DNA of 56,131 nucleotides. It comes from Firmicutes bacterium HGW-Firmicutes-12 (GTDB taxonomy: Bacteria > Bacillota > Peptococcia > DRI-13 > PHAD01). The notes beneath the pieces are model-generated. The model was not told the origin of the DNA. It saw only the letters and a program-made list of their open reading frames with translations, and made no database searches. The translations under genes and the position numbers were made by a program. Below, piece after piece: positions 12,770-56,131 of the stretch. Positions within the stretch are counted from its first letter, which is position 1, and each line of letters starts with the position of its first letter. Location: positions 1 to 56,131 of the forward strand of contig PHAD01000008.1 in NCBI GenBank assembly GCA_002841595.1, given 5' to 3'.

Positions 12770-12774
12770 ATATA

Positions 12775-35997: not shown

Positions 35998-36304
35998 CTT
36001 GACATTGTATAATAGATTTTTATAGGACATTAATATATAATATTTTCATGATAAAGCAGGAAAAACAAGCTAAAACTAGAAATAACATAATGACCTAAGT
36101 GAAAGGTGAGGCACATGGAAGAGATGCAATACGTCATTTTTAAACTAGTCGGAAGATAGTACTAGGTCAATTATTGTTAAGATAGAATATCAATCCTACG
36201 GTATGAACTAGGTGAAGGAAATCATAACTATATTGATCCGGAGTTAATAAAGGGAATTGTCTTACCTTCCCAAATATAAAATAAATTATCAAAAGGAAGA
36301 ACTT

Positions 36305-37450: not shown

Positions 37451-37499
37451 TATGTATTATTACTAGATGGTTAGTTCATTTAAAAGAGGTGATTTTAAA

Positions 37500-38540
37500 A
37501 TGATAAAAGCAAGTGTTCTTGGCGCTACCGGATATGCAGGTCAAGAATTGGTTAGAATGCTTTACCAACATGAATATGTAGAGATTGTAGGATTAGGCAC
37601 TCAGAGTTACGCTGGAAAGCCTTTTTCCGAAATATATCCACATTTTAATGGAGTTGTGGATACCGAATGCCTGAATATTGATGATCCAGCATTAATTAAT
37701 GCTGCTGAAGTAATATTCTTAGCATTGCCGCACGGATTAAGTCTACCTTATGTGGAGGCTGCCTCCAAAATAGGTAAAAAGGTAATAGATTTAGGGGCCG
37801 ACTTTCGTTTGAAGTCTCCATCGGTATATACAAAATGGTATAAGACAACGGGGCCTTCTTTAGAGCTCTTGAAGCAGGCAGTTTATGGTTTGCCTGAAGT
37901 GTATAGGCAGGATATAAAAGAAGCAAATATCATTGCTAATCCAGGATGCTATCCTACGACCGCCATTTTAGCTCTTGCTCCACTATTGAAGAATAAACTT
38001 ATTGATACTAATTATATAATAATAGATAGTAAGTCAGGAGTGAGCGGGGCCGGAAGAAGTTTAGTGGTTAATTCATTATTCTCTGAGGTAGACGGTGACT
38101 TAAAAGCCTACGGTATACCTCAGCACCGACATACTCCAGAGATTGAACAGGAGCTGACACTACTAGCAGAAAACGACGTTATGGTTACATTTACGCCCCA
38201 TCTCATACCAATGATTAGAGGAATGATGAGCACAGTTTACACAAGGCCCAATCAAAATGTTACTCAAATAGAGATAGAGGAAGCGTATCAGAACTTTTAT
38301 TCTAATGAACCATTTATAAGAATTCTTCCACAGGGACAGTACCCACATACTAAATGGGTATTGGGAACAAATTATTGTGATATCGGCTTATCCTGGGACG
38401 AGAGAACGGGTAGGCTGCGAATTATATCAGCTATTGATAATTTGGTTAAAGGGGCTTCTGGTCAAGCTGTTCAAAATATGAACATTATGTATGGTTTAAA
38501 TGAAAATTTAGGTCTAGCTAGAATAGCTATGTATCCATAG
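37500..38540 (+). CDS. argC: N-acetyl-gamma-glutamyl-phosphate reductase
   Basis: MIKASVLGATGYAGQEL N-terminus and the active-site segment NPGCYPT. Confidence 0.95.
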   Translation: MIKASVLGATGYAGQELVRMLYQHEYVEIVGLGTQSYAGKPFSEIYPHFNGVVDTECLNIDDPALINAAEVIFLALPHGLSLPYVEAASKIGKKVIDLGADFRLKSPSVYTKWYKTTGPSLELLKQAVYGLPEVYRQDIKEANIIANPGCYPTTAILALAPLLKNKLIDTNYIIIDSKSGVSGAGRSLVVNSLFSEVDGDLKAYGIPQHRHTPEIEQELTLLAENDVMVTFTPHLIPMIRGMMSTVYTRPNQNVTQIEIEEAYQNFYSNEPFIRILPQGQYPHTKWVLGTNYCDIGLSWDERTGRLRIISAIDNLVKGASGQAVQNMNIMYGLNENLGLARIAMYP

Positions 38541-38551
38541 GGGGTAAGAAT

Positions 38552-39766
38552 ATGAATATTAAAGTAATAGAGGATGGTGGAATTACTTCTCCTCTTGGAT
38601 TTCAAGCTGGGGCAGCTAGGGCTTCCATAAAAAAACCAGAGCGTTATGACCTGGCGGTAGTAGTATCACAGGTACCGGCGGTAGCTGCAGGAGTTTTCAC
38701 TACCAATAAATTCCAGGCGGCACCCGTGCAAGTATCGAGAAGAAACATTATTCACGAAAAGGTTATCGGTTTTGTGGTTAATAGTGGCAGTGCTAATGCC
38801 TGTACAGGTTTGCCGGGATTAACGGATGCAGAAGAAATGATAACTAAGGCTGCAGAGGCAGTTGGGTGTTACGCTGAGGAGATGCTGATTGCTTCAACTG
38901 GTGTTATTGGGGTACCTCTCCCTATGGGGCGAATACTTAAGGGAATAAACGATGCTTGTGCTAATTTATCTATCAAAAATGGAAATATAGCGGCACAAGC
39001 TATTATGACGACTGATACCTTTGCAAAAGAAGGTGCTGTCCAGTTTGACCTCGAAGGAAAAACAATAACCCTAGGTGCTATGGCTAAAGGGTCTGGGATG
39101 ATTCATCCCGATATGGCCACTTTACTGGGTTTTGTAACGACTGATATAGCAATTACGAAGAAATGTTTAAGGGAAGCACTGCTAGAGGCCAATCGTGACT
39201 CCTTTAATATGGTTACAGTTGATAGGGATACAAGTACGAATGATTCATTATTTGTTTTAGCAAATGGGCAGGCAGGCAATCAGCTTATTAGTGAGATAGA
39301 AAGTGTGGGATATAAGAGCTTTCGCGATGCTTTAAGCTATCTTTGCACTGAGATGGCCAAAATGATTGCTCGTGATGGGGAAGGAGCGACAAAGCTCATC
39401 GAGGTACAGGTGCTTGAAGCAAATACAAATGAAGATGCAAGAAAAGCAGCTAGAAGCATAGCCGCCTCCAATCTTGTCAAAGCAGCTATTTTTGGTGAGG
39501 ATGCTAACTGGGGCAGGATTATATGTGCTTTGGGCTACTCTGGGGCAGAGTTCAATCCTGATTTGGTTGACGTATGTATTGGGGATTTGAAGGTTGCTAT
39601 GAACGGTCAGGGTTTGAGTTTCGATGAGGAAGTAGCTAAAGATATATTACGGAATAAAACAATCGTTATTAAAGTAGTATTAAAGCAAGGTCAAGCCAAA
39701 TCCAAGGCTTGGGGTTGTGATTTAACCTACGAATATGTCAAGATAAATGGAGAGTATCGTACGTAG
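38552..39766 (+). CDS. argJ: Bifunctional ornithine acetyltransferase / N-acetylglutamate synthase
   Basis: VNSGSANACTG, the autoprocessing site segment HPDMATLLGF, and C-terminal CDLTYEYVKINGEYRT. Confidence 0.95.
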   Translation: MNIKVIEDGGITSPLGFQAGAARASIKKPERYDLAVVVSQVPAVAAGVFTTNKFQAAPVQVSRRNIIHEKVIGFVVNSGSANACTGLPGLTDAEEMITKAAEAVGCYAEEMLIASTGVIGVPLPMGRILKGINDACANLSIKNGNIAAQAIMTTDTFAKEGAVQFDLEGKTITLGAMAKGSGMIHPDMATLLGFVTTDIAITKKCLREALLEANRDSFNMVTVDRDTSTNDSLFVLANGQAGNQLISEIESVGYKSFRDALSYLCTEMAKMIARDGEGATKLIEVQVLEANTNEDARKAARSIAASNLVKAAIFGEDANWGRIICALGYSGAEFNPDLVDVCIGDLKVAMNGQGLSFDEEVAKDILRNKTIVIKVVLKQGQAKSKAWGCDLTYEYVKINGEYRT

Positions 39767-39776
39767 TGAAGGAGGA

Positions 39777-40640
39777 ATGAATTTGATATCAGCATTAGAG
39801 AAGGCGGGCATTCTAACTGAAGCACTGCCCTACATTCAATCTTTTGCAGGAAAAACTATAGTTATAAAGTATGGCGGCCATGCTATGATTGACCCGGAAC
39901 TGGAAGAGATGGTCTTAAAAGATATTATACTTATGAAGCTAGTAGGAATGAATCCTGTTATTGTCCATGGCGGTGGGCCGGCCATAAATGAATGGTTGGA
40001 TAAAATTAATATTCAGCCAAAGTTTGTTAACGGACTGCGCGTAACAGACTCTGCCACTATGGAAGTGGTTGAAATGGTCTTAGCCGGTAAAATTAACAAG
40101 GGAATAATTAGCCGGATCAATAGTTTTGGTGGTAAGGCGATTGGCCTAAGTGGCAAAGACGGAAGGCTAATTGAGGCTAATAGAAAAAAAGCTACCGAGG
40201 ATTTAGGCTTGGTAGGAGAAGTTATTAAAATTAATCCCGAAATAATTCAAACACTAACCAAAGAAGGATATATCCCGGTGGTTGCCCCTATCGGAGCGGG
40301 GCCCAATGGGGAAACGCTGAATATAAATGCTGATTACGTGGCAGGGGCGCTTGGAGGCGCGCTAAAAGCTCATAAGTTGGTCCTGCTAACAGATGTCGAA
40401 GGCATTTATCTTGGAGATGGTCCCCAGACACTGGTGTCACGTCTGTCTCAAAGAGAGATTAATCAGTTGATCGCTGAAGGGATTATAAAAGGTGGGATGA
40501 TTCCTAAGGTGGAAAGCTGCTTGTCAGCCTTGAAAAAGGGAGTGGAGAACGTACATATTATTGACGGAAGAAAACCGCACTCTCTCTTATTAGAAATATT
40601 TACAAATGAAGGTATAGGCACAATGGTTGTTAAGGAATAG
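39777..40640 (+). CDS. argB: Acetylglutamate kinase
   Basis: LTEALPYIQSFAGKTIVIKYGGHAM... VHGGGP... NINAD motifs. ATG at 39777 after GAAGGAGG. Confidence 0.95.
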   Translation: MNLISALEKAGILTEALPYIQSFAGKTIVIKYGGHAMIDPELEEMVLKDIILMKLVGMNPVIVHGGGPAINEWLDKINIQPKFVNGLRVTDSATMEVVEMVLAGKINKGIISRINSFGGKAIGLSGKDGRLIEANRKKATEDLGLVGEVIKINPEIIQTLTKEGYIPVVAPIGAGPNGETLNINADYVAGALGGALKAHKLVLLTDVEGIYLGDGPQTLVSRLSQREINQLIAEGIIKGGMIPKVESCLSALKKGVENVHIIDGRKPHSLLLEIFTNEGIGTMVVKE

Positions 40641-40664
40641 TAGTGGTACCGAGGAGGATTTTAT

Positions 40665-41755
40665 ATGAATAATGAATCTATAGTGAAAATGGGACATGAT
40701 TATGTTATGAATACTTACTCTCGCCATAATTTTGCGTTGGTAAGGGGCATGGGTAGTTATGTCTGGGATGCGGATGGCAATAAATATTTGGATATGGTAG
40801 CAGGTATTGCAGTTAATAATATTGGACATTGTCACCCCAAAGTAGTAGAGGCATTGCGTGAACAGGCAGGAATGTTCTTGCATTGCTCCAATCTTTACTG
40901 GATTGAACCTCAAGTTAAACTTGCGAAACTATTGGTTGAGAATTCCTTTGCTACAAAAGCATTTTTCTGTAACAGTGGTGCTGAAGCTAATGAGGCTGCG
41001 ATTAAACTAGCTAGAAAATACTCATATAATAAATATGGTCCTGGTCGAGCCGACATCATCTCAGCTGCTAACTCTTTTCATGGTCGTACACTTACAGCGC
41101 TTTCGGCTACAGGTCAAGAAAAATATCAAAAAGGCTTTGCACCTCTTACTCCTGGTTTTAAATATGTACCTTATAATGATTTAATGGCCCTAGAGGAAGC
41201 AGTTGGGAAAAAGACCTGTGCAATTCTCTTAGAACCTTTGCAGGGAGAGGGAGGGGTAAATGTACCAGACCCCGGGTATATGAAAGGGGTACGTGATATC
41301 TGTGATAAGCATGACCTTCTATTAATGCTGGATGAGGTTCAGACGGGCCTTGGGCGGACGGGTAAACTCTTTGCCTATGAGCATTATGGTATTATACCGG
41401 ATCTCATCACCCTGGCTAAGGGACTTGGTGGTGGTGTGCCTATAGGAGCTTGTATCGCCGGCGGAACGAGAAATTAGCAGATCAAGCTGCCGAAAAACAC
41501 GACTACATACAAGCCAAGGTTAAGGATATGCAGAATAAATATTCAGTTATAAGTCATTTCCGGGGGATGGGCCTTTTGATAGGAATTGCTCTTAATATTG
41601 AAGCAAAACCAATTCAGGAGAAATGCCAAGCAAAAGGGCTGCTTATCAACTGTGTGCAGAACAAAGTCTTGCGGATGGTTCCTCCATTAAACATAGCTTA
41701 TGAGGATATTGACAAGGGTTTGGCTATTTTAGAAGAAGTCTTAGCGAGTATATAA
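40665..41755 (+). pseudogene. argD: Acetylornithine aminotransferase, disrupted (internal ~115-120-nt deletion plus frameshift near 41455-41480)
   Basis: ORF 1 (40665-41477) reaches the PLP-lysine region ...TLAKGLGGGVPIGACIAG, then stops. ORF 2 (other frame, to 41755) resumes at ...KLADQAAEK...FRGMGLLIGI...VLRMVPPL. The HG(S/T)TFGGNP block in between is absent. Confidence 0.75.
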
Positions 41756-41832
41756 GCATATAAGTGCAGTAACGGCTAAGATACTATTATAATATTATTA
41801 TTTGAATATAAAGAGACGGGAGTGAGAAAAAG

Positions 41833-42756
41833 ATGAATTTAAAAGGACGCGATTTTATTTCCTTAGCAGACTTTACTAGTGAGGAAATATGGTATCTTTT
41901 GGAATTAGCCCGTGAGTTAAAGGAAAAACAAAAAAATGGCACTCCTCATAAATTGCTTGATAGAAAGACGTTAGCAATGATCTTTCAAAAATCCTCAACG
42001 CGCACCAGAGTATCCTTCGAAGCGGCTATGTATCATCTGGGTGGGCTAGGAATGTTTCTTAGCAAAAATGACTTACAGATAGGTCGTGGCGAACCGATAC
42101 AGGATACGGCAAGGGTTTTAGAGCGCTATTGTGAAGGTATACTCATTAGGACGTACAGCCATCAAGAAGTCATAGATTTAGCGCATTATGCTGATGTACC
42201 TGTGATAAATGGTTTAACGGATGACTATCATCCTACCCAGGCCTTAGCCGATCTACTTACGATATGGGAGCATAAGGGAACACTTGCCGGTATGAAACTT
42301 GCTTATGTCGGAGATGGCAATAATGTTGCACATAGCCTGATATTGGCCGGAGCCCTTACGGATATGGAAGTTGTAGTTGCTTCACCGCAAGGCTACCAAC
42401 CCAATCCCGAGATCGTAGCAAAAGCAAAGTCTTTAGCCAAAGATCCTACGAAAATAAAAGTACTCATTGATCCTCTAGAAGCTGTTTTTGAGGCACAAAT
42501 ACTATACACTGACGTTTGGACCAGCATGGGGCAAGAAGAAGAGATGCAGGAGCGTAAAAAGGTCTTGAGTAAATACCAAATAAACCAGCAAATGCTTAAA
42601 TATGCAGATAAGGAAGCAATAGTTATGCATTGCCTGCCGGCTCATCGTGGTGAAGAAATAACTAATGACGTAATGGAGGGACCACAATCCGTAGTGTTTG
42701 ATGAAGCAGAAAATAGGCTTCATGCTCATAAGGCCATACTGGCAGCACTACTTTAA
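41833..42756 (+). CDS. argF: Ornithine carbamoyltransferase
   Basis: FQKSSTRTRVSFE, DDYHPTQ and HCLPAHRGEE motifs. Confidence 0.96.
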   Translation: MNLKGRDFISLADFTSEEIWYLLELARELKEKQKNGTPHKLLDRKTLAMIFQKSSTRTRVSFEAAMYHLGGLGMFLSKNDLQIGRGEPIQDTARVLERYCEGILIRTYSHQEVIDLAHYADVPVINGLTDDYHPTQALADLLTIWEHKGTLAGMKLAYVGDGNNVAHSLILAGALTDMEVVVASPQGYQPNPEIVAKAKSLAKDPTKIKVLIDPLEAVFEAQILYTDVWTSMGQEEEMQERKKVLSKYQINQQMLKYADKEAIVMHCLPAHRGEEITNDVMEGPQSVVFDEAENRLHAHKAILAALL

Positions 42757-42790
42757 TAAGAGATAGCTTTAGATACAGGAGGGATTTATT

Positions 42791-44005
42791 GTGATAAAAA
42801 TTGACAAAGTTATTCTCGCTTATTCAGGAGGACTTGACACATCCATCATCATTCCATGGTTGAAAGAAAACTATGGTTGTGAAGTTATTGCCATGGCTGC
42901 AGATGTTGGCCAGGGAGAAGATCTAGAGCCCTTAAAGCAAAAAGCTATAAAAACAGGAGCAAGTAAAATATATATTGAAGATGTCAGAGCAGAATTTGTA
43001 ACTGACTACATTTTCCCGACGTTAAAAGCCGGTGCTGTTTATGAGGGTAAATACCTTCTCGGTACCTCTTTTGCCCGTCCTTTAATAGCCCAAAAGCTTG
43101 TCGAAATAGCCAGAAAAGAAGGAGCTCAGGCCATAGCACATGGAGCCACCGGTAAGGGTAATGACCAAGTGCGTTTTGAACTCACGATTAAAGCTTTAGC
43201 CCCAGATTTGAAGATAATAGCTCCTTGGAGAGAATGGGATATAAAGTCACGGGAACAAGCGATTGACTATGCGCAGGAACGGGATATCCCTATTCCTGTA
43301 ACAAAAGCACGGCCTTACAGCATGGACGGTAACATATGGCATCTAAGCCATGAAGGGGCTGATTTAGAAGACCCGGCTAATGAGCCGCCCGATGATGTGC
43401 TGATGGTAATAACTTCGCCTGAGAAGGCACCTGATAAGCCTGAATATGTAGAACTTGAGTTTGTTAAGGGTGTTCCTGTTGCTGTCAATGGTGAAAAGCT
43501 TGATCCGATCAGCTTGATGGAGAAGCTTAATACGATCGCAGCGAGAAACGGGGTAGGTATTGCAGATATTCTCGAAAATCGTTTAGTTGGCATGAAGTCA
43601 AGAGGAGTGTATGAGACACCCGGAGGGACTGTTCTTTATCTTGCTCATCAGGAATTAGAACTTCTTACTCTTGATCGTATAACGTTACATTATAAACAAA
43701 TGATAGCCCTGCGTTATGCTGAGCTGGTTTATGATGGAGTCTGGTTCCATCCCTTAAGAGAAGCAATGGATGCCTTTGTCGATGTAACCCAGCAAACAGT
43801 TACAGGAAAAGTAAAAATGAAGCTTTATAAAGGTAACTGTATGCCCGCAGGCGCTACATCCCCATATTCCTTGTATAATGAAGGGTTTGCCACTTTTGGA
43901 GAGGATGAAGTGTATAACCAAAAGGATGCAGAAGGCTTTATAAATCTTTTTGGCCTCCCGTTAAAGGTCCGTGCACTGATGAAACAAAACTGTGGACTTA
44001 AGTAG
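42791..44005 (+). CDS. argG: Argininosuccinate synthase
   Basis: [13 protein letters not shown]-loop-like motif and [18 protein letters not shown] start after AGGAGGG. Confidence 0.96.
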
Positions 44006-44047
44006 AAACGGTTTATATAAGTTAAGTATCTAGGAAGGGGGGCAATT

Positions 44048-45442
44048 ATGAAGCTTTGGGGAGGACGCTTTCAGAAAAGTACTAATCAATTAGTAGAAGA
44101 CTTTCATTCTTCAATAAGCTTTGATGGGCGCTTATATCGCCAAGATATTCTAGGCAGCATTGCCCATGCTAGGATGTTAGGAGAAGAGGGTATTATCACT
44201 ATTGAAGAGGCCGCACAGCTTATTATAGGACTTGAGGGAATTCTTAAAGATATTGAAACAGAAAAAATAGAGTTCTCAATGGAAGCAGAAGATATACATA
44301 TGAATATTGAAACTCTACTAATTGAAAGAATCGGGCAAACAGGTAAGAAACTTCATACTGGTAGAAGCCGTAACGATCAGGTAGCTCTTGATACGCGTAT
44401 ATTTGTGAAGGAAGAAATCCAGAAAACGCAATTACTGTTGAAAGACCTTATAAAAACCCTTGTAGATATAGCAGAAGAGAATGCTGAAACGATAATGCCT
44501 GGCTATACACATTTACAGATAGCTCAGCCCATCACGCTAGGGCATCATCTTTTAGCCTATGTTGAGATGTTTAAACGCGATTACGGAAGGCTTGCAGATT
44601 GCTATAAGAGAACCGATATTATGCCCTTAGGAGCAGGAGCATTGGCAGGTACGTCATACCCTCTTAATAGGCAAAGGGTTGCAGATGAATTAGGTTTTGG
44701 TGGTGTATCGAAGAACAGCATGGATAGTGTTTCCGACCGGGATTATATGATTGAATTTCTAGCAGCGGCTTCACTCGTAATGATGCATCTTTCTCGTTTT
44801 TGTGAAGAGATTATTCTTTGGGCTAACCAAGAATTTGCCTTTATTGAACTAGACGACAGCTACAGCACAGGTTCTTCTATTATGCCGCAGAAAAAAAACC
44901 CGGATGTAGCTGAACTCATGCGGGGTAAGACCGGTCGTGTCTATGGCGATCTAATGGCATTGCTTACAGTTATGAAAGGATTACCTTTAACTTATAATAA
45001 GGATATGCAGGAAGACAAAGAAGCTCTTTTTGATGGAGTAGATACAGTGCAAAAATGCCTGTTAGTTTTCACTCCTATGTTAGCTACGATAACATTTAAG
45101 AAAGATAAAATGAGACTTTCTGCCCAAAAGGGGTTCTCTAATGCGACTGACTTAGCTGATTATTTGGTTAGGCAGGGGATGAGTTTTCGGGATGCCCATC
45201 ATGTTGTCGGAAAATTAGTAAGCTATTGTATATCCTGCAGCAAGCTTTTAGAAGAGCTATCCATAGAGGAAATGAGAACGGCTTATGAGGATGGCGAACT
45301 ACAGATACAAGAATATATTAATGAAGATGTCTATGATTCATTAAAACTTGAAACAGTAGTAGCACGTCGTTCAACTATTGGAGGAACTGCCCCGAACCGC
45401 GTAAAAGAAGAGGTTAAACAATCGCGAAATTGGTTAAAGTGA
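44048..45442 (+). CDS. argH: Argininosuccinate lyase
   Basis: MKLWGGRF N-terminus, TGRSRNDQV, and the fumarate-lyase signature [12 protein letters not shown]. Confidence 0.96.
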
Positions 45443-45571: not shown

Positions 45572-47356
45572 ATGAGGGTTAATAAGGTAAATACTCTTAT
45601 CGTTCTGATTTTCATGGTTCTATTTCTATTTTGCATGACCATCAGTATACCGGCTTCTCTTTCCCCAGTTCAGGCCGAAGACTTCAGTCCTTCGGACGGC
45701 GGAGGATTTGAGCCGGCGTCTTCGGATCCTGGTAGTATGCCAGAGGGTCCCTCGGGTCCTGGCACGATGGGTCCTGGCACGATGGGTCCTGGCACGATGG
45801 GCCCTGGTATGATGGGTCCTGGCATGATGGGTCCTGGCATGATGGGTCCTGGCATGCCAGGAGGTGGGACGCCTCCCCCGAGCGACTCAGGGTGGACTAG
45901 CGATACTAATGGAAATTGGACACCACCTGCAGACTGGACACCTCCGGTTGGCTGGACGCCTCCGGTCGGTTGGCAGCCAGGACAGTCTATCACTGGCGAT
46001 GCCGCTCCGTGGAATCAGACAGGTATGATGGGATCGATGCCAACAATGGGGATGCCCTCTGATATGACTGGATTATTTGGTCCTGGAGGTCCAGCTGTAG
46101 GAGATGTACTGGGAATATCAGGGACTTCCGGTACAGGAAGTATCACTCCTGCTGGTTTGACATCAGGTATATTTGGAGGTGGGGAGGGTTTCTTTAACGG
46201 CGGTATCATGGGAACAAATATTTCTGGAATACCTCCCTCAACGGATTCAGGCTGGATTCAGGGTGCAGACAGCACGTGGATTCCTCCGGTAGATTGGGCG
46301 CCTCCGGCTGATTGGACACCTCCTGCAGGATGGCAGGCTGGACAGCCAATTCCCGAGGATGTCACGCCTTGGAAACAGTTGTCTACTGGTGTATTTGAAG
46401 GAATGACGGGATCCGTGCCAAGCAGCCAGCCTCAGTTTTTACCAGGTACTCTAATAAGATTGCCCTCTGGTATGAATTTGAGCCAGGCTATGACAAACTT
46501 TGATCCAACTGCTTTTGGTGTTACTCTGCCCTCTTTCCTCACACCGGATGATTTTGAAAAAATCATGAAGGGTGAAGCAACTGTTGACAATATGACTCAG
46601 GAAATGCTCAAGGCGCTTAACCCGGGGAAATTCGGACCTATGAAAGATCCATATATCATGTCTAGGACCAGTGGTCTGACCATGGATGAGATGGGGGAAT
46701 TTTTCGTGCAGGCATCGGAAGGGGCGCCGGGCAACGTGTTTATTGTACAGGCAAAAGCTCTGGCTGATGAAGGTAAGTTCGAAGAAGCTTTATCAGTACT
46801 CAATGATCCCACAGCACCCTTCAACCAGTTCCCTGATGCTATGATACATACCTGGAAAGCAGCTATTGCAGCAAGTTCCGGCGTAAACAACGATGCTATT
46901 TTGAATATGGAAAGAGCATTGGCCCTGTCGCCTTATGATGATAAGCTTTACCAGAAGGCAGGTGAGATTTACAAACAGATAGGAGTTGCTGGACCGAAGG
47001 TATTTGTCAATGGCGTAAAACCGGAATTCGATGTCAATCCTTTTATTGACACAGGGAGAACCCTCGTACCTTTCAGAGCTCTGGCCGAGACGATGGGTGC
47101 CGACGTGGGCTGGAATGCAACCACCAAGACTGTAACTGTCATCAAGGGTGAAAAGGAAATTCAAATGGTCATAGGAAATAATACTGCTACTGTTAACGGA
47201 ACCCCGGTCATCCTGGATGTGCCTCCCAAAATTGTGAACGGGCGTACCGTTATCCCGCTAAGGTTCGTTGGGGAGAGTCTTGACGCCGATGTTGGTTATG
47301 ACGGGTCCACCGAGATAATTAAGATCCTGCCTAAGGCAATCCCAGAGGAGAATTAG
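45572..47356 (+). CDS. Secreted repeat-rich protein with C-terminal copper-amine-oxidase-N-like ('stalk') domain
   Basis: Signal peptide ending PVQA/ED. (GPG[TM]M)n run. Two ~46-aa W-x-P-P modules. C-terminal VNGVKPEFDVNPFIDTGRTLVPFRALAE...NGRTVIPLRFVGESLDADV. Confidence 0.8.
   Translation: MRVNKVNTLIVLIFMVLFLFCMTISIPASLSPVQAEDFSPSDGGGFEPASSDPGSMPEGPSGPGTMGPGTMGPGTMGPGMMGPGMMGPGMMGPGMPGGGTPPPSDSGWTSDTNGNWTPPADWTPPVGWTPPVGWQPGQSITGDAAPWNQTGMMGSMPTMGMPSDMTGLFGPGGPAVGDVLGISGTSGTGSITPAGLTSGIFGGGEGFFNGGIMGTNISGIPPSTDSGWIQGADSTWIPPVDWAPPADWTPPAGWQAGQPIPEDVTPWKQLSTGVFEGMTGSVPSSQPQFLPGTLIRLPSGMNLSQAMTNFDPTAFGVTLPSFLTPDDFEKIMKGEATVDNMTQEMLKALNPGKFGPMKDPYIMSRTSGLTMDEMGEFFVQASEGAPGNVFIVQAKALADEGKFEEALSVLNDPTAPFNQFPDAMIHTWKAAIAASSGVNNDAILNMERALALSPYDDKLYQKAGEIYKQIGVAGPKVFVNGVKPEFDVNPFIDTGRTLVPFRALAETMGADVGWNATTKTVTVIKGEKEIQMVIGNNTATVNGTPVILDVPPKIVNGRTVIPLRFVGESLDADVGYDGSTEIIKILPKAIPEEN
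45755..45856 (+). repeat. Coding tandem repeat, 15-nt unit GGTCCTGGCA(C/T)GATG, about 6.7 copies
   Basis: Read directly. It encodes GPGTM x3, then GPGMM x3, then GPGMP. Confidence 0.9.
45881..46378 (+). repeat. Two diverged 138-nt coding modules (45881-46018 and 46241-46378)
   Basis: SDSGWTSDTNGNWTPPADWTPPVGWTPPVGWQPGQSITGDAAPWNQ versus TDSGWIQGADSTWIPPVDWAPPADWTPPAGWQAGQPIPEDVTPWKQ. Confidence 0.85.
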
Positions 47357-47463: not shown

Positions 47464-47832
47464 TTATTTAATCTTATTGTATTCCTTCACCTTACCAAAC
47501 AATTCATAACAGCCCATAGTTATTAGAAAGAAGCCAAAGATTTTCCGCAGAACTTCAGCTTCTAATTTATTGGCTAAAGTAGCCCCAACGGTAGCTCCTA
47601 TCAGTGCCCCGATTGTTAGGTACAAGGCTAGTATAGTATTTATATTTTGCTGTCGGTAGTGAGTGATTACGGCTACGATCGCGGTAGGAATAAATGCAAC
47701 AAGGCAGATACCTTGAGCCGTATGCTGGCCTATATGCATGAAGATAACTAGGGCAGGAACCAACAGAGTGCCGCCACCTATAGCCATACCACTTAAAATA
47801 CCCATAAATAGCCCGATGATATAGATTAGCAT
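47464..47832 (-). CDS. Half-size TSUP (TauE/SafE) family membrane protein, second half
   Basis: 122 aa, 4 TM, GILSGMAIGGGTLLVPAL motif. Its ATG overlaps the upstream stop (TAATG). Confidence 0.8.
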   Translation of the reverse strand: MLIYIIGLFMGILSGMAIGGGTLLVPALVIFMHIGQHTAQGICLVAFIPTAIVAVITHYRQQNINTILALYLTIGALIGATVGATLANKLEAEVLRKIFGFFLITMGCYELFGKVKEYNKIK

Positions 47833-48197
47833 TACAGTAGCATCCTTGTCCCAGCAATAATCATAAAAATCCCAAATATTTGTTTAAGCCTTAAGGCTGA
47901 AATTTTCAACATTACTTTAGCCCCGATATAACCACCAAGCATACCGCCAACAGCAATTTTCAGTGCTAATGCCAAGTCAAGGTGATTGTTTGACTGGTAG
48001 ATGAAAGCACTTATTATAGTTGTTGGCAGTATAATTGCTAGGGAAGTGCCATGGGCAACATGCTGCTTTTGTCCTAGTAAAAAGACCATGGCTGGGATGA
48101 GAATAGTACCTCCTCCTATCCCGATAAGACCATTGATAAGACCGGTGATAACACCAATAGTACCCAGACGGCAGATGTTAATAAATGAGTAGCTCAT
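47832..48197 (-). CDS. Half-size TSUP (TauE/SafE) family membrane protein, first half
   Basis: GLINGLIGIGGGTILIPAM motif, 4 TM. ATG at 48197 follows AAGGAGG. The ORF-track start at 48236 is an upstream extension. Confidence 0.78.
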   Translation of the reverse strand: MSYSFINICRLGTIGVITGLINGLIGIGGGTILIPAMVFLLGQKQHVAHGTSLAIILPTTIISAFIYQSNNHLDLALALKIAVGGMLGGYIGAKVMLKISALRLKQIFGIFMIIAGTRMLL

Positions 48198-48239
48198 GAA
48201 ACTAATAACCTCCTTACTACGGTTATTAGTTTTCACTTT

Positions 48240-48980
48240 CTAATGATGAATAATTCCTAAGCAAAATATGATTATTAAACCAAAAATAAATCCTAACCTT
48301 GCGAAATTTGGATGCCTTCTTTGTGACTCTGGCATTAACTCATTCCTGACAATAAAAGCCATTGCGCCGCCTGCTAAGGCTAGTAGAAGGCAGATGAAGT
48401 GTACAGAAATAGTAACAAGCAATAATCCTAGATATGCCCCGAGGGGTGTAAATATACTGATGATTAGGCATATAAGAATTATTTTCCATCTAGACACTCC
48501 CCCCATGGTCAATGGTGCAGCCGTTGCCATACCTTCTGGAATGTTATGAAGTCCTATAGAGAGGGCTATAAGGATACCTAGACTCTCTTTTGCTGAGTAA
48601 CCTACAGCAATAGCTATGCCTTCAGGCAGGTCATGAAGGGCAATACCAACAGCAATTAGATAACCCATTTTAAGGAAGCGGGCATACTGACTAGCGGATT
48701 CAGTAAAAATTAATCCTGGAAATAGTGAAATAAAAATATTAAGACCTAACATAAAGATAAGGCCAAGCATAAAACCGGTTATGGTTGTTAGAATATTACC
48801 ATAATTGAGAGCCGAGGGGATAAGGTCGAAAATTACAACTGCTGTCATCACACCGCCGGCAAATCCCAATAGAATGGCCAATAAACGTTCACCGGGACGG
48901 CCCAGTGCAAGTACTATTAAGGCCCCCAAAACTGTAGCAAGACCAGCCAGCGTACTTTGCCATAATACTTCATAAACCAT
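48240..48980 (-). CDS. zupT: ZIP-family divalent metal (zinc) transporter, ZupT-like
   Basis: Polytopic 246-aa protein with HDLPEGIAIA and GLHNIPEGMA motifs. ATG 7 nt after AAGGAG. Confidence 0.85.
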   Translation of the reverse strand: MVYEVLWQSTLAGLATVLGALIVLALGRPGERLLAILLGFAGGVMTAVVIFDLIPSALNYGNILTTITGFMLGLIFMLGLNIFISLFPGLIFTESASQYARFLKMGYLIAVGIALHDLPEGIAIAVGYSAKESLGILIALSIGLHNIPEGMATAAPLTMGGVSRWKIILICLIISIFTPLGAYLGLLLVTISVHFICLLLALAGGAMAFIVRNELMPESQRRHPNFARLGFIFGLIIIFCLGIIHH

Positions 48981-50841: not shown

Positions 50842-50854
50842 ATAATTTAATTAA

Positions 50855-50902
50855 AAGTGCACCTCGAATGCTAGACACATATCTAGATTTGCTGGTGCAC
50901 TT
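50855..50902 (+). terminator. Extended hairpin after the YolD-like gene
   Basis: AAGTGCACC...GGTGCACTT outer stem with an inner CTAGA/TCTAG stem. Weak T-tract. Confidence 0.5.
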
Positions 50903-51042
50903 CGTTATGGTTAAAAAAGTTCTTTTTTCATATCAGCAGGAATTGACAAAATAAATCAAGAATAGTTCCTAAATTAATCAATTTTTGTAATAAAAACTAA
51001 GCTAATTAATGCTATATTCTAGGACTAGGGGTAACTACACAA

Positions 51043-52902
51043 ATGATAAATAAACATTTTAGAAATATCAAAAAGGATAACAATACAATAGTGGATAACA
51101 ATTCATTAAGGATTGTTATTTTAGGATGCATAACTATCGTTGTAGCATTAATATCGATGAGTATATTAAGTATGATTATTACCAGTAATGCTGTGCTTAA
51201 TAAGCTCAAGACAAGTGACTTACAGAACATGGCCAGAAGTATTAGTGTGTTCGTTGAAGGGAAAATTGACAAGGCCCTTGATATATCTGTCTTGCTAGCA
51301 AATGATCCCACCGTAGTTGAATGGATTCAGAAAGAAGAACAAAGCAGACTAGAAGGGGAAATCGTACAAGTAAAAATGGCAGAATTGGTCAATGATTTTG
51401 AGTATGATGTTTGCTTTCTTACAAGTGCTGTGACTAATCATTACTGGTCATATAGCAGTGTTGATAAGGAGTTTGTGTTACTGGATACTGTAACACAAAC
51501 TGACAGCAGTGATATGTGGTTCTTTGAAACTTTAAAAATGAAGAAAAAATATGATATTAACATTGATCATAATAAAGAACTAAATGACACGTATGTATGG
51601 ATTAACACCTTGGTGGGTGATATTAATCAACCTCTTGCAGTGAGTGGAGTAGGTATGAATTTAAGCAAGGTGATAAATCAACTTATTGAGGATGAAGAAG
51701 AAAATGAGATAAATAATGATATTTTGCTTGTAGATGGAGAAGGGCAAATATATTTATCTAAAAAACCAGAGTATCTGGAGAAGTCATTAACAGAATATCT
51801 ACCAGGAAACCTAGTACAAGAGATACTAAGAACGAATAATCTGGAAAGTAAGTTTGATATTGCAGATTATGAAACACCTCAAGGAGAATACTTTGATATA
51901 GCGTACAAAAAAATAAAGAATACAGATTGGAATTTAATTGTACAAATACCGCGGGCTGATAGTTTGGGGTTTCTAAAGGCTATTATTATAAACACTATTA
52001 TTTCATGTATTTTGATAATACTTATAATTGTTTTGTTATTCTATTTTATTTCTAATAAAATAGCTAACCCTTATAAGAGAGCTTTACTATTGAATGAGGA
52101 GCTTGAAGAAAAAGTTAAAGAGCGGACGAAGGAGCTTGTGGAAAAGAATAATAGAATAAAAGACAGTATAGAGTATGCAAAAATGATACAGCAAACAATA
52201 CTGCCATCGTCTTATGATATGGGAAAATGTTTAAAAGAGTATTTTATTATTTATGAACCTAGAGATATAGTAGGGGGCGATTTTTACTGGTTGAAGAGCC
52301 ATAGTAAAGGATATCTTGTCATAGTAGGTGATTGTACTGGGCATGGAGTTCCAGGAGCTCTTATGGCAACAGCGGTAAATGCTATGCTTAATCATGTTGT
52401 AGATGGGATTTGTAATGATAATCCTGCGGTTATTCTATATGAGCTAGACAGGCTATTAAAGCAATCATTTAAAATGAACCATAATGAGAAGTTTATATCA
52501 GATGGTGTAGACCTTGGTATAATTTATATAGAAGAGCACAAAGTTATTTTTTCGGGTGCTAACATATCTGTTTTTGTGGTAGACGGTAACAAAATAGATG
52601 AGATTAAAGGAAATAATTGTACAATTGATTATATAAGTGAACAGCAGGATAAGGTTTTTGAGAATTATGAGATCGCCTATAAACAGGGTGTTACGTTATA
52701 TATGGTAACTGATGGCCTTATAGAACAACCCGGAGGGGAAAAGGGTTATCCCTTTGGCAGACGTAGGTTTACAAATTTAATTGAAGCCGCTAGTAAGCTG
52801 GAAATGGATATACAATCATCATATATTCTTAATACTATTAAAGAATATGCAGATGAGCAGATAATTCGTGATGATCTCACACTCCTTGGGTTCAGATTAT
52901 AA
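51043..52902 (+). CDS. SiaA-like sensor phosphatase: TM, Cache-like extracytoplasmic domain, TM, coiled coil, PP2C/SpoIIE phosphatase
   Basis: Two TM segments flank a ~270-aa domain. C-terminal IVGGDFYW... VGDCTGHGVPGALM... VTDGL... RDDLTLLGF are PP2C/SpoIIE motifs. Confidence 0.85.
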   Translation: MINKHFRNIKKDNNTIVDNNSLRIVILGCITIVVALISMSILSMIITSNAVLNKLKTSDLQNMARSISVFVEGKIDKALDISVLLANDPTVVEWIQKEEQSRLEGEIVQVKMAELVNDFEYDVCFLTSAVTNHYWSYSSVDKEFVLLDTVTQTDSSDMWFFETLKMKKKYDINIDHNKELNDTYVWINTLVGDINQPLAVSGVGMNLSKVINQLIEDEEENEINNDILLVDGEGQIYLSKKPEYLEKSLTEYLPGNLVQEILRTNNLESKFDIADYETPQGEYFDIAYKKIKNTDWNLIVQIPRADSLGFLKAIIINTIISCILIILIIVLLFYFISNKIANPYKRALLLNEELEEKVKERTKELVEKNNRIKDSIEYAKMIQQTILPSSYDMGKCLKEYFIIYEPRDIVGGDFYWLKSHSKGYLVIVGDCTGHGVPGALMATAVNAMLNHVVDGICNDNPAVILYELDRLLKQSFKMNHNEKFISDGVDLGIIYIEEHKVIFSGANISVFVVDGNKIDEIKGNNCTIDYISEQQDKVFENYEIAYKQGVTLYMVTDGLIEQPGGEKGYPFGRRRFTNLIEAASKLEMDIQSSYILNTIKEYADEQIIRDDLTLLGFRL

Positions 52903-52921
52903 AATGAAGGGGGAAATAAAT

Positions 52922-53482
52922 ATGGAGTTATCTTTATATGAAATTTACAAAGAACTTAAGTTCAAAAGGATAATATTATGCTATAGTGGGCCTATTGCTC
53001 AAGCAAGTATTGAGGGAGTGGGAAGTACTCTGCGCCGAAATCTTGAAATAGAAGAAGCTGGAAATACTACCAAACTTTCTGTCTTTTCCATGTTTATAGA
53101 GCAGGTTCAGAATGTCTTGAATTATTCAGCTGAGAAATTAAGCAAGACAGAAGAAGATGGCAATGAACTACGCATTGGGGTAAGCGTTATAGGTTATGAG
53201 GAAAATGGGGATTACTTTATTTATTGCGGTAATAGAGTGTATAATTATGATATTCCAAGAATAAGCGAGAGTATTGAACAAGTCCGCAATTTAAGCAAGG
53301 ATGAACTAAAATTACTATATAAAGAACGTAGGAGAATGGAGCCTCAACCTGGAAGTAAAGGTGCAGGACTAGGGATTATCGAGATGGCGAGAAAATCAGT
53401 TATTCCTTTGGAGTATTCCCTTGTAAAAATAGATGAAGAGTTTTCTTTCTTTAGCATCAAAGTCGTGGTTGGGAGGCATTAA
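52922..53482 (+). CDS. SiaB-like protein kinase (RsbW/GHKL-like)
   Basis: ATG after GAAGGGGGA. ...KGAGLGIIEMARKS motif. Sits between the PP2C and DUF1987 genes. Confidence 0.7.
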   Translation: MELSLYEIYKELKFKRIILCYSGPIAQASIEGVGSTLRRNLEIEEAGNTTKLSVFSMFIEQVQNVLNYSAEKLSKTEEDGNELRIGVSVIGYEENGDYFIYCGNRVYNYDIPRISESIEQVRNLSKDELKLLYKERRRMEPQPGSKGAGLGIIEMARKSVIPLEYSLVKIDEEFSFFSIKVVVGRH

Positions 53483-53484
53483 GT

Positions 53485-53865
53485 ATGCAAAAGTTATTAA
53501 TCGAGAAAACAAATTCAACTCCTTTTATAAGCTTTGATGCAAAAGCAAGATTACTAGAGATTAAAGGGGAATCCTACCCGGAAAATGTGGCAAAATTCTA
53601 TACGCCTGTTCTTGAATGGCTACAAGACTATCTTAGTAATGATGAATCAGAAACAACTGCAGTTGAGTTCGAAATATTATATTTTAATAGTAGCTCGTCC
53701 AAGATATTTATGACAATATTTGATATACTGGAGCAAGCAGTTTCAAAGGGTAAAAAGATATTAGTAAAATGGATTTGTGATGAAGGAAATGAAACAGCAA
53801 TAGAGTGTGGTGAAGAGTTTAAGGAAGATTTAGTTCATTTGCCATTTGACATAAAGGTATATTAA
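53485..53865 (+). CDS. SiaC-like DUF1987 regulatory phosphoprotein
   Basis: TNSTPFISFDAKARLLEIKGESYPENVAKFYTPVLEWL and FEILYFNSSSSKIF fit the DUF1987 pattern. Confidence 0.75.
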   Translation: MQKLLIEKTNSTPFISFDAKARLLEIKGESYPENVAKFYTPVLEWLQDYLSNDESETTAVEFEILYFNSSSSKIFMTIFDILEQAVSKGKKILVKWICDEGNETAIECGEEFKEDLVHLPFDIKVY

Positions 53866-53879
53866 CCTGGAGGAACTTT

Positions 53880-54599
53880 ATGAAAAATATATTTGTAAAA
53901 GAAGAACAGGTAGTTGAAGAGGCAGAGAAGCTATTATCCGCAAAGCAGTTTACGGGAGAAGAAGATGCTCAAAACTATGGGGCTTTACTTGCAGAGTATA
54001 AGAGTCTGCTGAACCAGATGATTAAAGTTGTCAAAATATCCGACATTATGCAGTCGGAACTTAAAACGATGTCTGATAATTTTGAAGAGACCTCACGTAT
54101 AGATGTGTTAACAGGGATATATAACAGAAGATACTTTAATGAAAGTTATTTACGTGAATGGAAAAATGCAGTACGTACAAAAACATATCTAGCAGTTCTA
54201 ATGCTCGATATTGACTATTTTAAGAATTATAATGATACTTATGGCCATTTGCAGGGTGATGAATGCCTAAAGGCAGTAGCAAAGGGAATTCAACAAGCTA
54301 TTAAAAGGCCGCGTGATATTGTGACCCGGTATGGTGGCGATGAGTTTGTTGTCTTGTTGCCGGAAACAGAGGCCAAAGGAGCAACGTGTGTTGCCCAAAC
54401 TATTATCGACAATATAGAAAGCCTTGCTTTAGAGCATTCGGGTTCACCTATAAATCATAAAGTGACGGTATCGATAGGAGTATCTTCAATAATCCCCGAT
54501 AAAAGCATAAAAAAAGTTGATAGCCTTTTGAGTATTGCGGATACGGCACTATATATGGCAAAAGAACAGAGGAACTGCTTTAAACTATTAATCAGGTAA
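53880..54599 (+). CDS. SiaD-like diguanylate cyclase (coiled coil + GGDEF with I-site)
   Basis: DVLTGIYNRRYF... DIDYFKNYNDTYGHLQGD... RPRD-IVTRY-GGDEF. The RxxD lies 5 residues before GGDEF. Confidence 0.88.
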   Translation: MKNIFVKEEQVVEEAEKLLSAKQFTGEEDAQNYGALLAEYKSLLNQMIKVVKISDIMQSELKTMSDNFEETSRIDVLTGIYNRRYFNESYLREWKNAVRTKTYLAVLMLDIDYFKNYNDTYGHLQGDECLKAVAKGIQQAIKRPRDIVTRYGGDEFVVLLPETEAKGATCVAQTIIDNIESLALEHSGSPINHKVTVSIGVSSIIPDKSIKKVDSLLSIADTALYMAKEQRNCFKLLIR

Positions 54600-54626
54600 A
54601 ACCAAATAATAAAACTACTTCTTTTA

Positions 54627-54669
54627 GCAGAAATAAATAGCCTTGGATTTTAAGGCTATTTATTTCTGC
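54627..54669 (+). terminator. Rho-independent terminator after the GGDEF gene
   Basis: 18-bp perfect stem GCAGAAATAAATAGCCTT / AAGGCTATTTATTTCTGC. Confidence 0.8.
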
Positions 54670-54911
54670 TATTCTATTGAGCTGATAGGGAGATTTGAAG
54701 GCCCGACCTGCTGATAAGAAGTATGAGAATAGATGTAATGTAATGAGTAAATATTTTTCTTTTTTAACGTTTGTCGAAATATGTAAAAAGTAGTCGCAAC
54801 AAAAGTGTACAGGTAGTATGGGATATTATGTATAATTTAATAGGACGTACTTCAGCATGGACTATAAGTAGATTAGTCTTGTAGAAAGGTTGCGGTTTTT
54901 TGAATAGCCAT

Positions 54912-56131
54912 ATGAGATTATTGAAAATAACCAGTATTTTCGTAATATTGACATTTCTTTTTATGATGGGTTTAGTTCCTAATCGGGATGTAACCCCGGG
55001 AAAGACGCTTAACCCATTGGATCCTAATACAAGAAGTGGCGGAACAGTTCCAAAAACAGCAGGAAGGATCTATGAAAAAAAAATAAGTTTGAAGGAAAGA
55101 GCCACTGAAAAGAGTAGAAGCCTTAGGTCTGGCATGACAGCGGCAAAAGGGAAGTTGAGCACTGACCTGCTACAATTAATAGACGATAGGTTTCTTTTTA
55201 GTTCTATGTCGATAGAAAAGCTAAAAGAAGACATGATTAAGAAAAAACAAATGGTAAGAAGTGGTTCTAAGGTTAGGGGAGTCAAGGCAATCTCCTCTGA
55301 TGCAGTGTATGTTTACATTCAGCTGGGACGCGGTCAGGATCCGACGATCGTCAATCCCTATGTAGCTAATGTTGCTAACACGGATAGAAATAATGGGTTA
55401 GTTGTAGCCTGGGTTGAACCCAGTAAGCTGGAAAGCTTGGCTTCTATGTCGGCAGTAAAGTCTATCCGCACTGTCGAACCGCCAAGGCATAAAATGGGTT
55501 TGGCATATAGCGAGGGAGATTATCAGCTATACGCCAGTGAATTGCGTAATCGGTTAGGATATGCCGGAGCAGGGGTTAAGATTGGGGTTATATCCGATGG
55601 AGTAGATACTTGGACTTGGGCAAGGGATAGAGGAGAGCTACCTGTAAACTTACATGTGTTAAGGAGCGCTTACACTTTAGGCGGTGATGAGGGTACCGCA
55701 ATGCTTGAAATTATTCACGACTTGGCTCCTGCGGCTGAATTGTATTTTCATGATTGCGGTAATGATATTTTGGAGTTTAATGCTGCAATTGACGCTTTGG
55801 TTGCTGCGGGCTGTAATGTTATAGTAGATGATATCGGTTGGCCGTGTGAACCTTTCTTTGCCGATGGAGTGGTAGCTCAGCATGTCAGCAACGTTATTTC
55901 TACAAATCAGATCATCTATGTATCTGCAGCAGGTAATGACGCCCAGATCCACTATCAAGGTGATTTCTATCAAGACATTGCATACCCGGGATATCATGAT
56001 TTCAGTCAAGGTCAAAGCGGGACTCCGGATTTATATGCCTTGGTGCCGGATGGAGGTACTATCAAAGGTGTTCTCCAATGGAATGATCCGCTGCTAGGCT
56101 CTAGCAATGATTATTGTGTCAGGTTATTTGA
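54912..56131 (+). CDS. Secreted subtilase-like (S8-like) protein, 5' part; runs off the window end. Not in the ORF track.
   Basis: Open frame from ATG 54912 to the end. Signal peptide MRLLKITSIFVILTFLFMMG. GVKIGVISDGVD, GDEGTAMLEIIHDLAP and YVSAAGND blocks. Weak RBS. Confidence 0.55.
   Translation, partial: MRLLKITSIFVILTFLFMMGLVPNRDVTPGKTLNPLDPNTRSGGTVPKTAGRIYEKKISLKERATEKSRSLRSGMTAAKGKLSTDLLQLIDDRFLFSSMSIEKLKEDMIKKKQMVRSGSKVRGVKAISSDAVYVYIQLGRGQDPTIVNPYVANVANTDRNNGLVVAWVEPSKLESLASMSAVKSIRTVEPPRHKMGLAYSEGDYQLYASELRNRLGYAGAGVKIGVISDGVDTWTWARDRGELPVNLHVLRSAYTLGGDEGTAMLEIIHDLAPAAELYFHDCGNDILEFNAAIDALVAAGCNVIVDDIGWPCEPFFADGVVAQHVSNVISTNQIIYVSAAGNDAQIHYQGDFYQDIAYPGYHDFSQGQSGTPDLYALVPDGGTIKGVLQWNDPLLGSSNDYCVRLF

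Follow-up and report, generated by a model that had tools for sequence, protein, structure and literature searches.

This report concerns a cluster of four genes, siaA to siaD, that lies near the end of a 56,131-nucleotide stretch of DNA from Firmicutes bacterium HGW-Firmicutes-12 (contig PHAD01000008.1; referred to below, at its full length, as the window). The genes resemble the SiaABCD system of Pseudomonas aeruginosa (PA0172-PA0169), which drives aggregation and biofilm formation in that organism and whose input signal is debated. All four are read from the forward strand. They encode a membrane-bound sensor PP2C phosphatase of 619 amino acids (siaA, 51043-52902), a SiaB-family protein kinase of 186 amino acids (siaB, 52922-53482), a SiaC/DUF1987 switch protein of 126 amino acids (siaC, 53485-53865), and a diguanylate cyclase of 239 amino acids (siaD, 53880-54599). 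A first-pass annotation, made from the letters of the sequence, had described tightly packed co-directional genes at 51043-54599 with gaps of 2-20 nucleotides (nt). The open reading frames (ORFs) agree with this description, since the consecutive gaps measure 19, 2, and 14 nt, and a ribosome-binding site precedes each gene. The siaB ORF as listed begins at a GTG (position 52868), yet the true start is almost certainly the ATG at 52922, because it follows a GAAGGGGG ribosome-binding site by 6-8 nt and gives the 186-residue product, and because the corresponding ENA contig annotates the same start and the alignment with the SiaB profile begins there.

Ahead of the operon, the intergenic stretch that serves as its leader and putative promoter region (50842-51042, forward strand) contains, as read from the sequence, a stem-loop formed by AGTGCACC (50856-50863) and GGTGCACT (50894-50901). 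This structure (50856-50901) probably terminates the upstream yolD-like gene, and its position behind that gene suggests that siaA-siaD form an independent transcription unit. Further downstream, an extended -10-like element (TGcTATATT, 51010-51018) and an AGGGG ribosome-binding site (approximately 51028-51032) can be read ahead of siaA. A scan for the sigma-70 promoter consensus upstream of siaA gave no site scoring above background, and we can only infer a promoter at the -10-like element. At the other end, 26 nt after the siaD stop codon, the terminator scan and the sequence itself point to an intrinsic terminator-like hairpin (54625-54671, forward strand) with a 20-bp stem that includes six G-C pairs and is followed by TTCTATTG; six terminator-like sites were found in the region against 1.8 expected. 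The first-pass annotation had called this terminator strong, which holds for the stem but not for its weak T-tail. Taken together, the gaps of 2-19 nt, the ribosome-binding site of each gene, and the terminator after siaD argue for one operon and one transcript.

Profile searches with SpoIIE/PP2C, the SiaB family, PF09345, and GGDEF each found their protein in the cluster, at scores that chance would not produce, and the motifs quoted in the first-pass annotation (GAGLGIIEMARKS, YFNSSSSK, RPRD, and GGDEF) are all present. In SiaA, Pfam recognizes a dCache_1 domain (residues 59-300, 51 bits against a cut-off of 45) and a SpoIIE domain (422-618, 78 bits), and two hydrophobic segments (approximately 19-52 and 307-343) border the Cache region in the sequence, bearing out the proposed arrangement of a Cache domain between two transmembrane segments (TM1 and TM2) and a phosphatase behind them. 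An AlphaFold2 model, built from 30 homologues and with a mean confidence (pLDDT) of 82.5, places TM1 at approximately 19-45, its helix continuing into the long N-terminal Cache helix (19-86), and the dCache domain at approximately 47-303, with a membrane-distal module (123-206) and a proximal one (226-303). TM2 (approximately 304-340) is followed in the model by an uninterrupted helix (343-386) and by the PP2C domain (399-618). When the model was submitted to Foldseek, the PP2C domain of P. aeruginosa SiaA (6k4e) came first (TM score 0.90), followed by the dCache ligand-binding domains 8bmv and 9b9s, and the PP2C fold also matched SpoIIE, RsbX, and Rv1364c. By sequence, the match to 6k4e has an E-value of 5e-55. 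Using the lists of catalytic residues for SiaA and SiaB in PMC7647112, we find the metal-binding residues D413, D430, D490, D557, and D610 at the positions of P. aeruginosa D457, D474, D534, D600, and D653; C431/G433 and G558 are retained as well.

The sensor half of SiaA deserves separate attention, as it had been described as an extracytoplasmic domain different from that of Pseudomonas. This is contradicted by the alignments: residues 33-246 match positions 15-224 of the Pseudomonas SiaA profile NF038263 (E-value 1e-22), BLASTP aligns the sensor directly with residues 61-201 of P. aeruginosa SiaA (E-value 5e-14), and PA0172 has already been catalogued as a dCache protein (residues 102-304; PMC8694187). 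Full-length P. aeruginosa SiaA was taken from a metagenome contig (L088, 2346-4334) whose product is 100% identical to the crystallised domain. The sensor of the window SiaA is homologous to the Pseudomonas one, itself a dCache domain. In our Pfam scan dCache_1 is not called in P. aeruginosa SiaA, and this missed call probably explains the impression of differing sensors, as well as why a Cache domain went unrecognized there in the early papers; in our view it does not speak for a different sensor. What does differ is the connection between membrane and phosphatase. P. aeruginosa SiaA carries a HAMP domain at 337-385, where the model of the window protein has its one continuous helix; no HAMP hit was obtained between TM2 and PP2C of the window SiaA, and PF00672 occurs in none of its 120 nearest homologues.

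The second gene product belongs to the DUF6272 family (141 bits, Pfam cut-off 26.6) and to the broader SiaB_fam_kinase model NF038262 (183.7 bits, cut-off 85), and it aligns over residues 11-183 with P. aeruginosa SiaB (PDB 6kko_A, E-value 4e-26). It retains the E60-x3-N64 box, whose Glu is equivalent to the predicted catalytic E61 of P. aeruginosa. Its GAGLG nucleotide-binding loop (G147-G151), within the motif GAGLGIIEMARKS at 147-159, aligns with 6kko_A. Clustered at 50%, the SiaB family has 2470 representatives in a set of 1.84 billion proteins. Among those inspected (P0387, P0415, P0437, P0447, P0480, and P0503) are tandem double-SiaB proteins of approximately 360-390 amino acids and proteins of 801 and 840 amino acids that end in a C-terminal SiaB domain, architectures that we did not find in the Sia literature examined.

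The third protein, SiaC, scores 150.5 bits on PF09345 (SiaC/DUF1987; gathering cut-off 24.5) and matches P. aeruginosa SiaC (PDB 6kko_C/6k4f) with an E-value of 3e-21. In P. aeruginosa the phosphosite is Thr68 (PMC7278518). The first-pass annotation had noted Ser at the putative phosphosite, and in the alignment S69 of the segment YFNSSSSK (residues 66-73) indeed stands opposite Thr68, within N68-S69-S70 (N67-T68-S69 in P. aeruginosa); S69 is thus the predicted phosphosite of the window protein. N68, S69, S70, S72, and K73 are invariant in 17 relatives. We also compared the residues that contact SiaD with the list given in PMC8457831: kept are N68, S69, and S70 (P. aeruginosa N67, T68, and S69) together with M76, D80, E111, and D115.

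The cyclase SiaD, finally, consists of a helical stalk (approximately 1-73) and a GGDEF domain (74-231; 167 bits in Pfam) in which both the active site (GGDEF, 152-156) and, five residues ahead of it, the I-site (RPRD, 143-146) are intact. The Pseudomonas SiaD equivalog profile aligns with residues 33-230, into the stalk; among the NCBIfam models it ranks second, with the generic GGDEF domain first and every other named cyclase behind it. P. aeruginosa SiaD (PDB 7e6g_A) is matched from residue 31 to 226, stalk included, with an E-value of 8e-25; among the PDB matches it ranks 15th, behind WspR-type GGDEF domains (E-values of approximately 1e-40). The stalk keeps K49, V50, K52, I53, S54, D55, and Q58, corresponding to P. 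aeruginosa K77, V78, R80, I81, S82, D83, and Q86, of which S82 and Q86 hydrogen-bond the side chain of SiaC Thr68 (PMC8457831). These residues form a single SiaC-binding motif (K52-ISDIMQ-58, within MIKVVKISDIMQ), whereas the P. aeruginosa stalk has two, LERIARISDGFQ and LEKVARISDRYQ (S50/Q54 and S82/Q86), and binds four SiaC per dimer (PMC8457831). The difference is systematic: of 50 Pseudomonas-type SiaD, 41 have two motifs, but of 64 window-type SiaD none does. In the window-type proteins the distance from the one motif to the GGDEF domain is usually exactly 23 residues. Because the stalk offers one SiaC-binding motif instead of two, we predict a complex of two SiaD with two SiaC rather than a 2:4 complex. 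The single motif and the lack of HAMP in SiaA are differences that the first-pass annotation had missed.

Setting the window beside P. aeruginosa as a whole, the proposed homology to SiaABCD in the same gene order is well founded, with profile hits and matches to 6k4e, 6kko_A, 6kko_C, and 7e6g_A. The two systems share the order of the four genes and their domain families, a homologous dCache sensor, the metal ligands of PP2C, the E-x3-N box and GAGLG loop of SiaB, a hydroxyl residue at the switch position of SiaC, a [KR]ISDxxQ motif for SiaC binding in the stalk, and a GGDEF domain with an RxxD I-site. They differ in the HAMP domain (present in Pseudomonas, absent from the window SiaA), in the switch residue (Ser69 versus Thr68), in the number of stalk motifs (one versus two), and in the N-terminus of SiaD, which is approximately 35 residues shorter here. 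Identity between the two SiaA proteins amounts to 36% in PP2C and 24% in the sensor.

To see how far this variant extends, one genome of each species was scanned, starting from two peptide patterns, so that the counts are a lower bound. At least 223 species genomes encode a relative of the window SiaC, and the Ser-type protein occurs across Bacillota, Thermotogota, Synergistota, Desulfobacterota, and others. Gene neighbourhoods were analysed for the best 80 of these 223 genomes, which include Clostridia, Negativicutes (Megasphaera and Megamonas), Peptococcia-like lineages, Thermotogota (Petrotoga), and Synergistaceae and also many Desulfobacterota, SAR324, Campylobacterales, and some Betaproteobacteria. 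All four sia genes are clustered in approximately 61 of the 80 loci, although the order varies: A-B-C-D in 31, A-D-B-C in 23, B-C-D-A in 3, plus minor variants. A search for flanking genes common to the window and the 80 related loci, which might have pointed to vertical inheritance or to an island, found none; given the clustering despite a shuffled order, the four genes therefore travel as a unit. The switch motif reads YFNSS[ST]SK in 79 of 79 readable window-type loci (from the 80 genomes with a close SiaC) and Y[LM]NTSS[IV]K in 51 of 51 Pseudomonas-type cases (from 58 loci). Fourteen loci, all of them Bacillota, match the sensor domain of the window strongly (among them Clostridium magnum, Dethiobacter, Syntrophomonas, Herbinix, Megamonas, and Megasphaera). 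SiaA homologues with a dCache_1+SpoIIE composition are found in Desulforamulus reducens MI-1, Desulfofarcimen acetoxidans, Sporomusa, and others, all with generic annotations.

Judged by these shared features, the window locus belongs to a coherent sister branch of SiaABCD, widespread in anaerobic Firmicutes, Thermotogota, Synergistota, and sulfate reducers, in which the Ser switch residue, the absence of HAMP, and the single-motif stalk are clade-wide. The branch is unstudied, as the first-pass annotation had supposed for Firmicutes: the Sia papers that we found in the literature deal with P. aeruginosa, and no study of the module outside Pseudomonas came to light. The eLife paper PMC8457831 notes DUF1987 as widespread, without more. 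On the other hand, the branch is visible from public family models, as SiaB and SiaC are named automatically by curated models. The earlier reading was thus right about the identity of the module, wrong about the sensor, and too generous as to novelty, considering that the branch is present in hundreds of sequenced genomes.

Since the catalytic residues, the phosphosite, and the SiaC-SiaD contact residues are kept, all parts needed for the Pseudomonas mechanism are present, and very probably the locus works as a Sia-type switch on the synthesis of cyclic di-GMP (c-di-GMP). Transferred by homology, its biochemistry would run as follows. Unphosphorylated SiaC would bind the SiaD stalk at KISDIMQ and stabilise the active dimer, so that c-di-GMP is made. 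Phosphorylation by SiaB of S69, the residue that would insert between the stalk helices, would block this binding and switch the cyclase off, and SiaA would strip the phosphate from SiaC whenever its dCache domain (or its membrane segments) detects the signal. The signal would pass from TM2 through a single long helix to PP2C, without a HAMP relay, and c-di-GMP may feed back on SiaD via the RPRD I-site. The phosphosite, the stoichiometry, the input, and the downstream phenotype are likewise inferred; gene content, gene order, homology, conserved residues, and distribution are matters of direct observation.

Several points weigh against so close an analogy. Measured by profile score, the four proteins are family members and not orthologues in NCBI's sense, because none of them reaches the NCBI equivalog cut-off for the Pseudomonas protein: SiaA scores 313.5 bits, in two stretches, on NF038263 (cut-off 700), SiaB 127 bits on the strict equivalog NF038264 (225), SiaC 118.4 bits on NF038265 (150), and SiaD 163.7 bits on NF038266 (290). 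Contacts have changed on both sides of the interface, in SiaC (P. aeruginosa R103 to T104 and L107 to C108) and in SiaD (R84 to I56, Y85 to M57, and D91 to T63). The Ser run S69-S72 provides alternative candidate phosphosites, and the window holds no c-di-GMP effector or riboswitch. It is fair to ask whether homologous parts might be wired differently, e.g., with phospho-SiaC as the activating form, or with SiaD as a mere neighbour while SiaC acts mainly on something else, be it a sigma factor, an anti-sigma factor, or a different enzyme. Approximately 20 of the 80 loci have a DUF1987-SiaB pair without an adjacent cyclase (e.g., A-B-C, B-C, or C-B-B), so that the B-C core can serve other outputs, and PMC8457831 suggests that DUF1987 proteins modulate whichever protein adjoins. 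In the window, however, the adjoining cyclase carries the SiaC-binding motif in its stalk, at the conserved place 23 residues before GGDEF and with both of the residues that contact the phosphosite. Moreover, the phosphosite lies within the interface, where by analogy with Pseudomonas a phosphate should clash. We consider a different wiring improbable for these reasons.

Even less credit can be given to the idea that the cluster arose in assembly or is what remains of a decayed or inactive module. It could draw on a shorter siaD ORF on a JGI contig with the same locus and on argD, elsewhere in the window, which looks disrupted. The short JGI siaD is due to a run of N, i.e., a scaffold gap and not a mutation; a loss-of-function allele on that contig (L002) was accordingly rejected, 10 N standing in for 48 bp. 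The locus is present in ENA, JGI, and Logan assemblies, with the siaC product on eight contigs across these, and an identical, intact siaA-siaD lies on an independent ENA contig (L001). Two groundwater metagenome runs hold 92-100% of the 31-mers of the locus (the runs that hold it are DNA metagenomes only), and all catalytic motifs are intact. Independent contigs, read support, and intact motifs effectively refute this explanation.

Some loci outside the four-gene arrangement are worth mentioning in their own right. In L039 and L070 (Proteobacteria and Desulforapulum metagenome-assembled genomes, MAGs) three tandem PP2C paralogues are followed by B-C without an adjacent cyclase, in L066 and L069 (SAR324) siaC is followed by two SiaB paralogues, again without an adjacent cyclase, and in L082 and L084 (Gallionella) B-C stand alone. 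Such arrangements suggest that in these groups the B-C switch controls something other than a cyclase next to it.

A Sia-type switch in the window leaves room for more than one kind of input, and two proposals compete for SiaA: perturbation of the membrane and a small extracellular metabolite of the purine type, bound in the membrane-distal pocket of the dCache domain. The former has been put forward for P. aeruginosa SiaA, whose N-terminal 336 residues are required and for which no ligand is known (2025, PMC12834913). The latter arises from the company that the sensor keeps, as its nearest solved relatives by sequence and fold are purine sensors, namely McpH with uric acid (8bmv, TM score 0.83) and Htc10 with guanine (9b9s, TM score 0.81). 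The study that defined the purine motif dCache_1PU tested three Bacillota "S/T phosphatase" domains, R13-R15 (PMC11245519). One of them, R14 (the dCache_1-SpoIIE phosphatase WP_021170906 of Sporomusa ovata), binds theophylline, inosine, xanthine, and hypoxanthine at 1-6 uM (PMC11245519), and the ligand-binding domain in the window is 35% identical to it over its full length (E-value 3e-61). Furthermore, a Sporomusa acidovorans homologue that is 52% identical to the R14 domain lies within a siaB-siaC-siaA-GGDEF/HD-GYP operon; we use it as a proxy for the genomic context of R14.

The signature residues themselves give a divided answer. The dCache_1PU signature comprises five residues in the distal module, Y / [RKH] / W / [FY] / [ND] (PMC11245519), and the window SiaA keeps only three of them (Y134, W159, and N188), plus the structural F160. 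At the fourth position it is still aromatic, with W186 instead of F/Y, but the basic residue that stands at -11 from the motif Trp in McpH, R14, and R15 is D148 here, and the nearest Lys (K142) is at -17. This residue count from the motif Trp led us to reject the window SiaA as a canonical ("YKWFN-like") dCache_1PU sensor. The W-variant strings YKWWN and YRWWN are missing from the consulted part of the supplement of PMC11245519, whose tables write the signature in dotted form ("Y...K...W...F...N"), and SiaA goes unmentioned in the body of the article. With the evidence thus split, a purine-type input for the window SiaA is possible but doubtful.

P. aeruginosa SiaA (L088) shows a pocket pattern like that of the window, with Tyr in HYY, Trp in AWYF, and Trp-x-Asn in VWFN; it resembles dCache_1PU except for Trp at position four and the lack of an in-register basic residue. 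This Y...W...W.N pattern may be relevant to the SiaA signal. As a tentative proposal, the SiaA sensors of both the Firmicute branch and P. aeruginosa might have branched off from the dCache_1PU lineage of purine sensors. In that case, the chemical input long sought for Sia switches would be an extracellular metabolite, purine-like or a related heteroaromatic compound, coupling nucleotide-salvage cues to c-di-GMP synthesis and aggregation, and the sub-branch to which the window belongs (Trp at position four, no in-register basic residue) would have shifted in ligand specificity. The purine-like ligand should be taken as a lead with rather long odds, not as a finding.

Among known systems, the dCache_1PU domains (McpH of Pseudomonas putida and R13-R15 of Bacillota; Monteagudo-Cascales et al. 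2024, PMC11245519) share with the window the dCache_1 fold and the conserved Y, W(F), and N signature residues, and R14 has the same dCache_1-SpoIIE architecture; they differ from it by having Phe/Tyr at position four, where the window has Trp, and a basic residue in place of D148. The S. acidovorans operon (L085 3056-7493, CP155571.1) is likewise from the Bacillota and encodes a dCache_1-SpoIIE phosphatase, 38% identical to the window SiaA, with adjacent SiaB and SiaC. Its order is B-C-A-D, however, its SiaC has Thr (YINTSSSK), and in the place of the stalk-GGDEF cyclase it has an output protein of 540 amino acids that combines GGDEF with HD-GYP. Close to this operon there is an IS110 transposase.

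A broader kinship exists with the STAS-based partner switches, such as SpoIIE/SpoIIAA/SpoIIAB and RsbU/RsbV/RsbW of Bacillus, HsbR/HsbA/HsbD of P. aeruginosa, and BgrSTUWV of Sinorhizobium. There, too, a PP2C phosphatase and a GHKL-like Ser/Thr kinase act in opposition on a small alpha/beta switch protein, and SpoIIAA and RsbV normally carry their phosphate on a Ser. Control of a cyclase by a switch protein is likewise described for HsbD and BgrR (PMC8457831). Unlike in these systems, the switch protein of the window is DUF1987/SiaC and not a Pfam STAS domain, the two being related in structure only, and the kinase belongs to the DUF6272/SiaB family and not to HATPase_c. By analogy with Pseudomonas, the Sia switch would directly activate a cyclase by way of the stalk, where other switches set a sigma factor free.

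As regards the host, the assignment to Firmicutes finds support in RpoA, encoded in the same window, which is 91% identical to that of a "Clostridia bacterium" MAG and 81-86% identical to those of Peptococcaceae/Peptococcia MAGs. The host is an uncultured Peptococcia-like member of the Bacillota from groundwater metagenomes. Two other genes of the window, both on the forward strand, belong to c-di-GMP metabolism. One encodes a 562-aa protein (31886-33574) with GGDEF (191-350) and HD-GYP-type HD_5 (378-543) domains behind 185 N-terminal residues without a domain match, the other a 361-aa HD/HD_5, HD-GYP-like protein (36257-37342). In view of these genes, the organism appears to use c-di-GMP in a network that reaches beyond SiaD. 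Searches of the window for a c-di-GMP riboswitch, other Rfam families, and tRNAs (the latter as island markers) found none.

Two large proteins flank the region, both on the forward strand and both with a C-terminal Cu_amine_oxidN1 domain: one upstream, of 594 amino acids and without any other match (45572-47356), and one downstream that runs off the end of the window (54900-56131). A longer ENA contig shows the latter to be an S8 peptidase of 1513 amino acids that also has a cadherin-like domain. Both are probably cell-surface proteins. The split argD (40665-41755, forward) sits within an otherwise intact argC-J-B-D-F-G-H cluster (37467-45442). A 270-aa ORF covers approximately the first two thirds of the aminotransferase; Pfam positions 308-403 fall on a 101-aa ORF that overlaps it in a different frame. 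Approximately 40 positions are missing, through a frameshift or deletion or through an assembly error. An AmmeMemoRadiSam system (33651-35997, forward) consists of a 478-aa fusion of LigB/Memo-like (19-278) and AMMECR1 (315-475) parts followed by the radical SAM partner. At the start of the window, a ribosomal-protein/SecY/RpoA cluster is followed by ECF transporter ATPases (755-15362, forward). A KdpD-like sensor kinase (890 amino acids), with an OmpR-type regulator overlapping its end, lies beside TrkH (22017-25371, forward), and kdpABC is absent from the window ORFs scanned. Lastly, a TauE/SafE-type sulfite exporter is encoded on the reverse strand as two adjoining half-size ORFs of approximately 121 and 122 or more amino acids (47832-48236 and just upstream), next to a ZIP metal transporter (48240-48980); either the exporter comes in a form with two genes, or a single gene may have been split.

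These findings overturn nothing in the current understanding of Sia switches; their value lies in what the branch has to offer. For annotation, Sia-type names could be given to those of its genes that now read "SpoIIE family protein phosphatase" and "GGDEF domain". For mechanism, the branch provides simpler natural variants in which to ask whether a 2:2 SiaC-SiaD complex suffices for activation, and it is suited to comparing Ser with Thr phosphosites and to following signalling from dCache to PP2C without HAMP. Finally, the link to purine-binding dCache_1-SpoIIE domains that have already been screened for ligands would give a concrete way to seek the chemical input of these switches.

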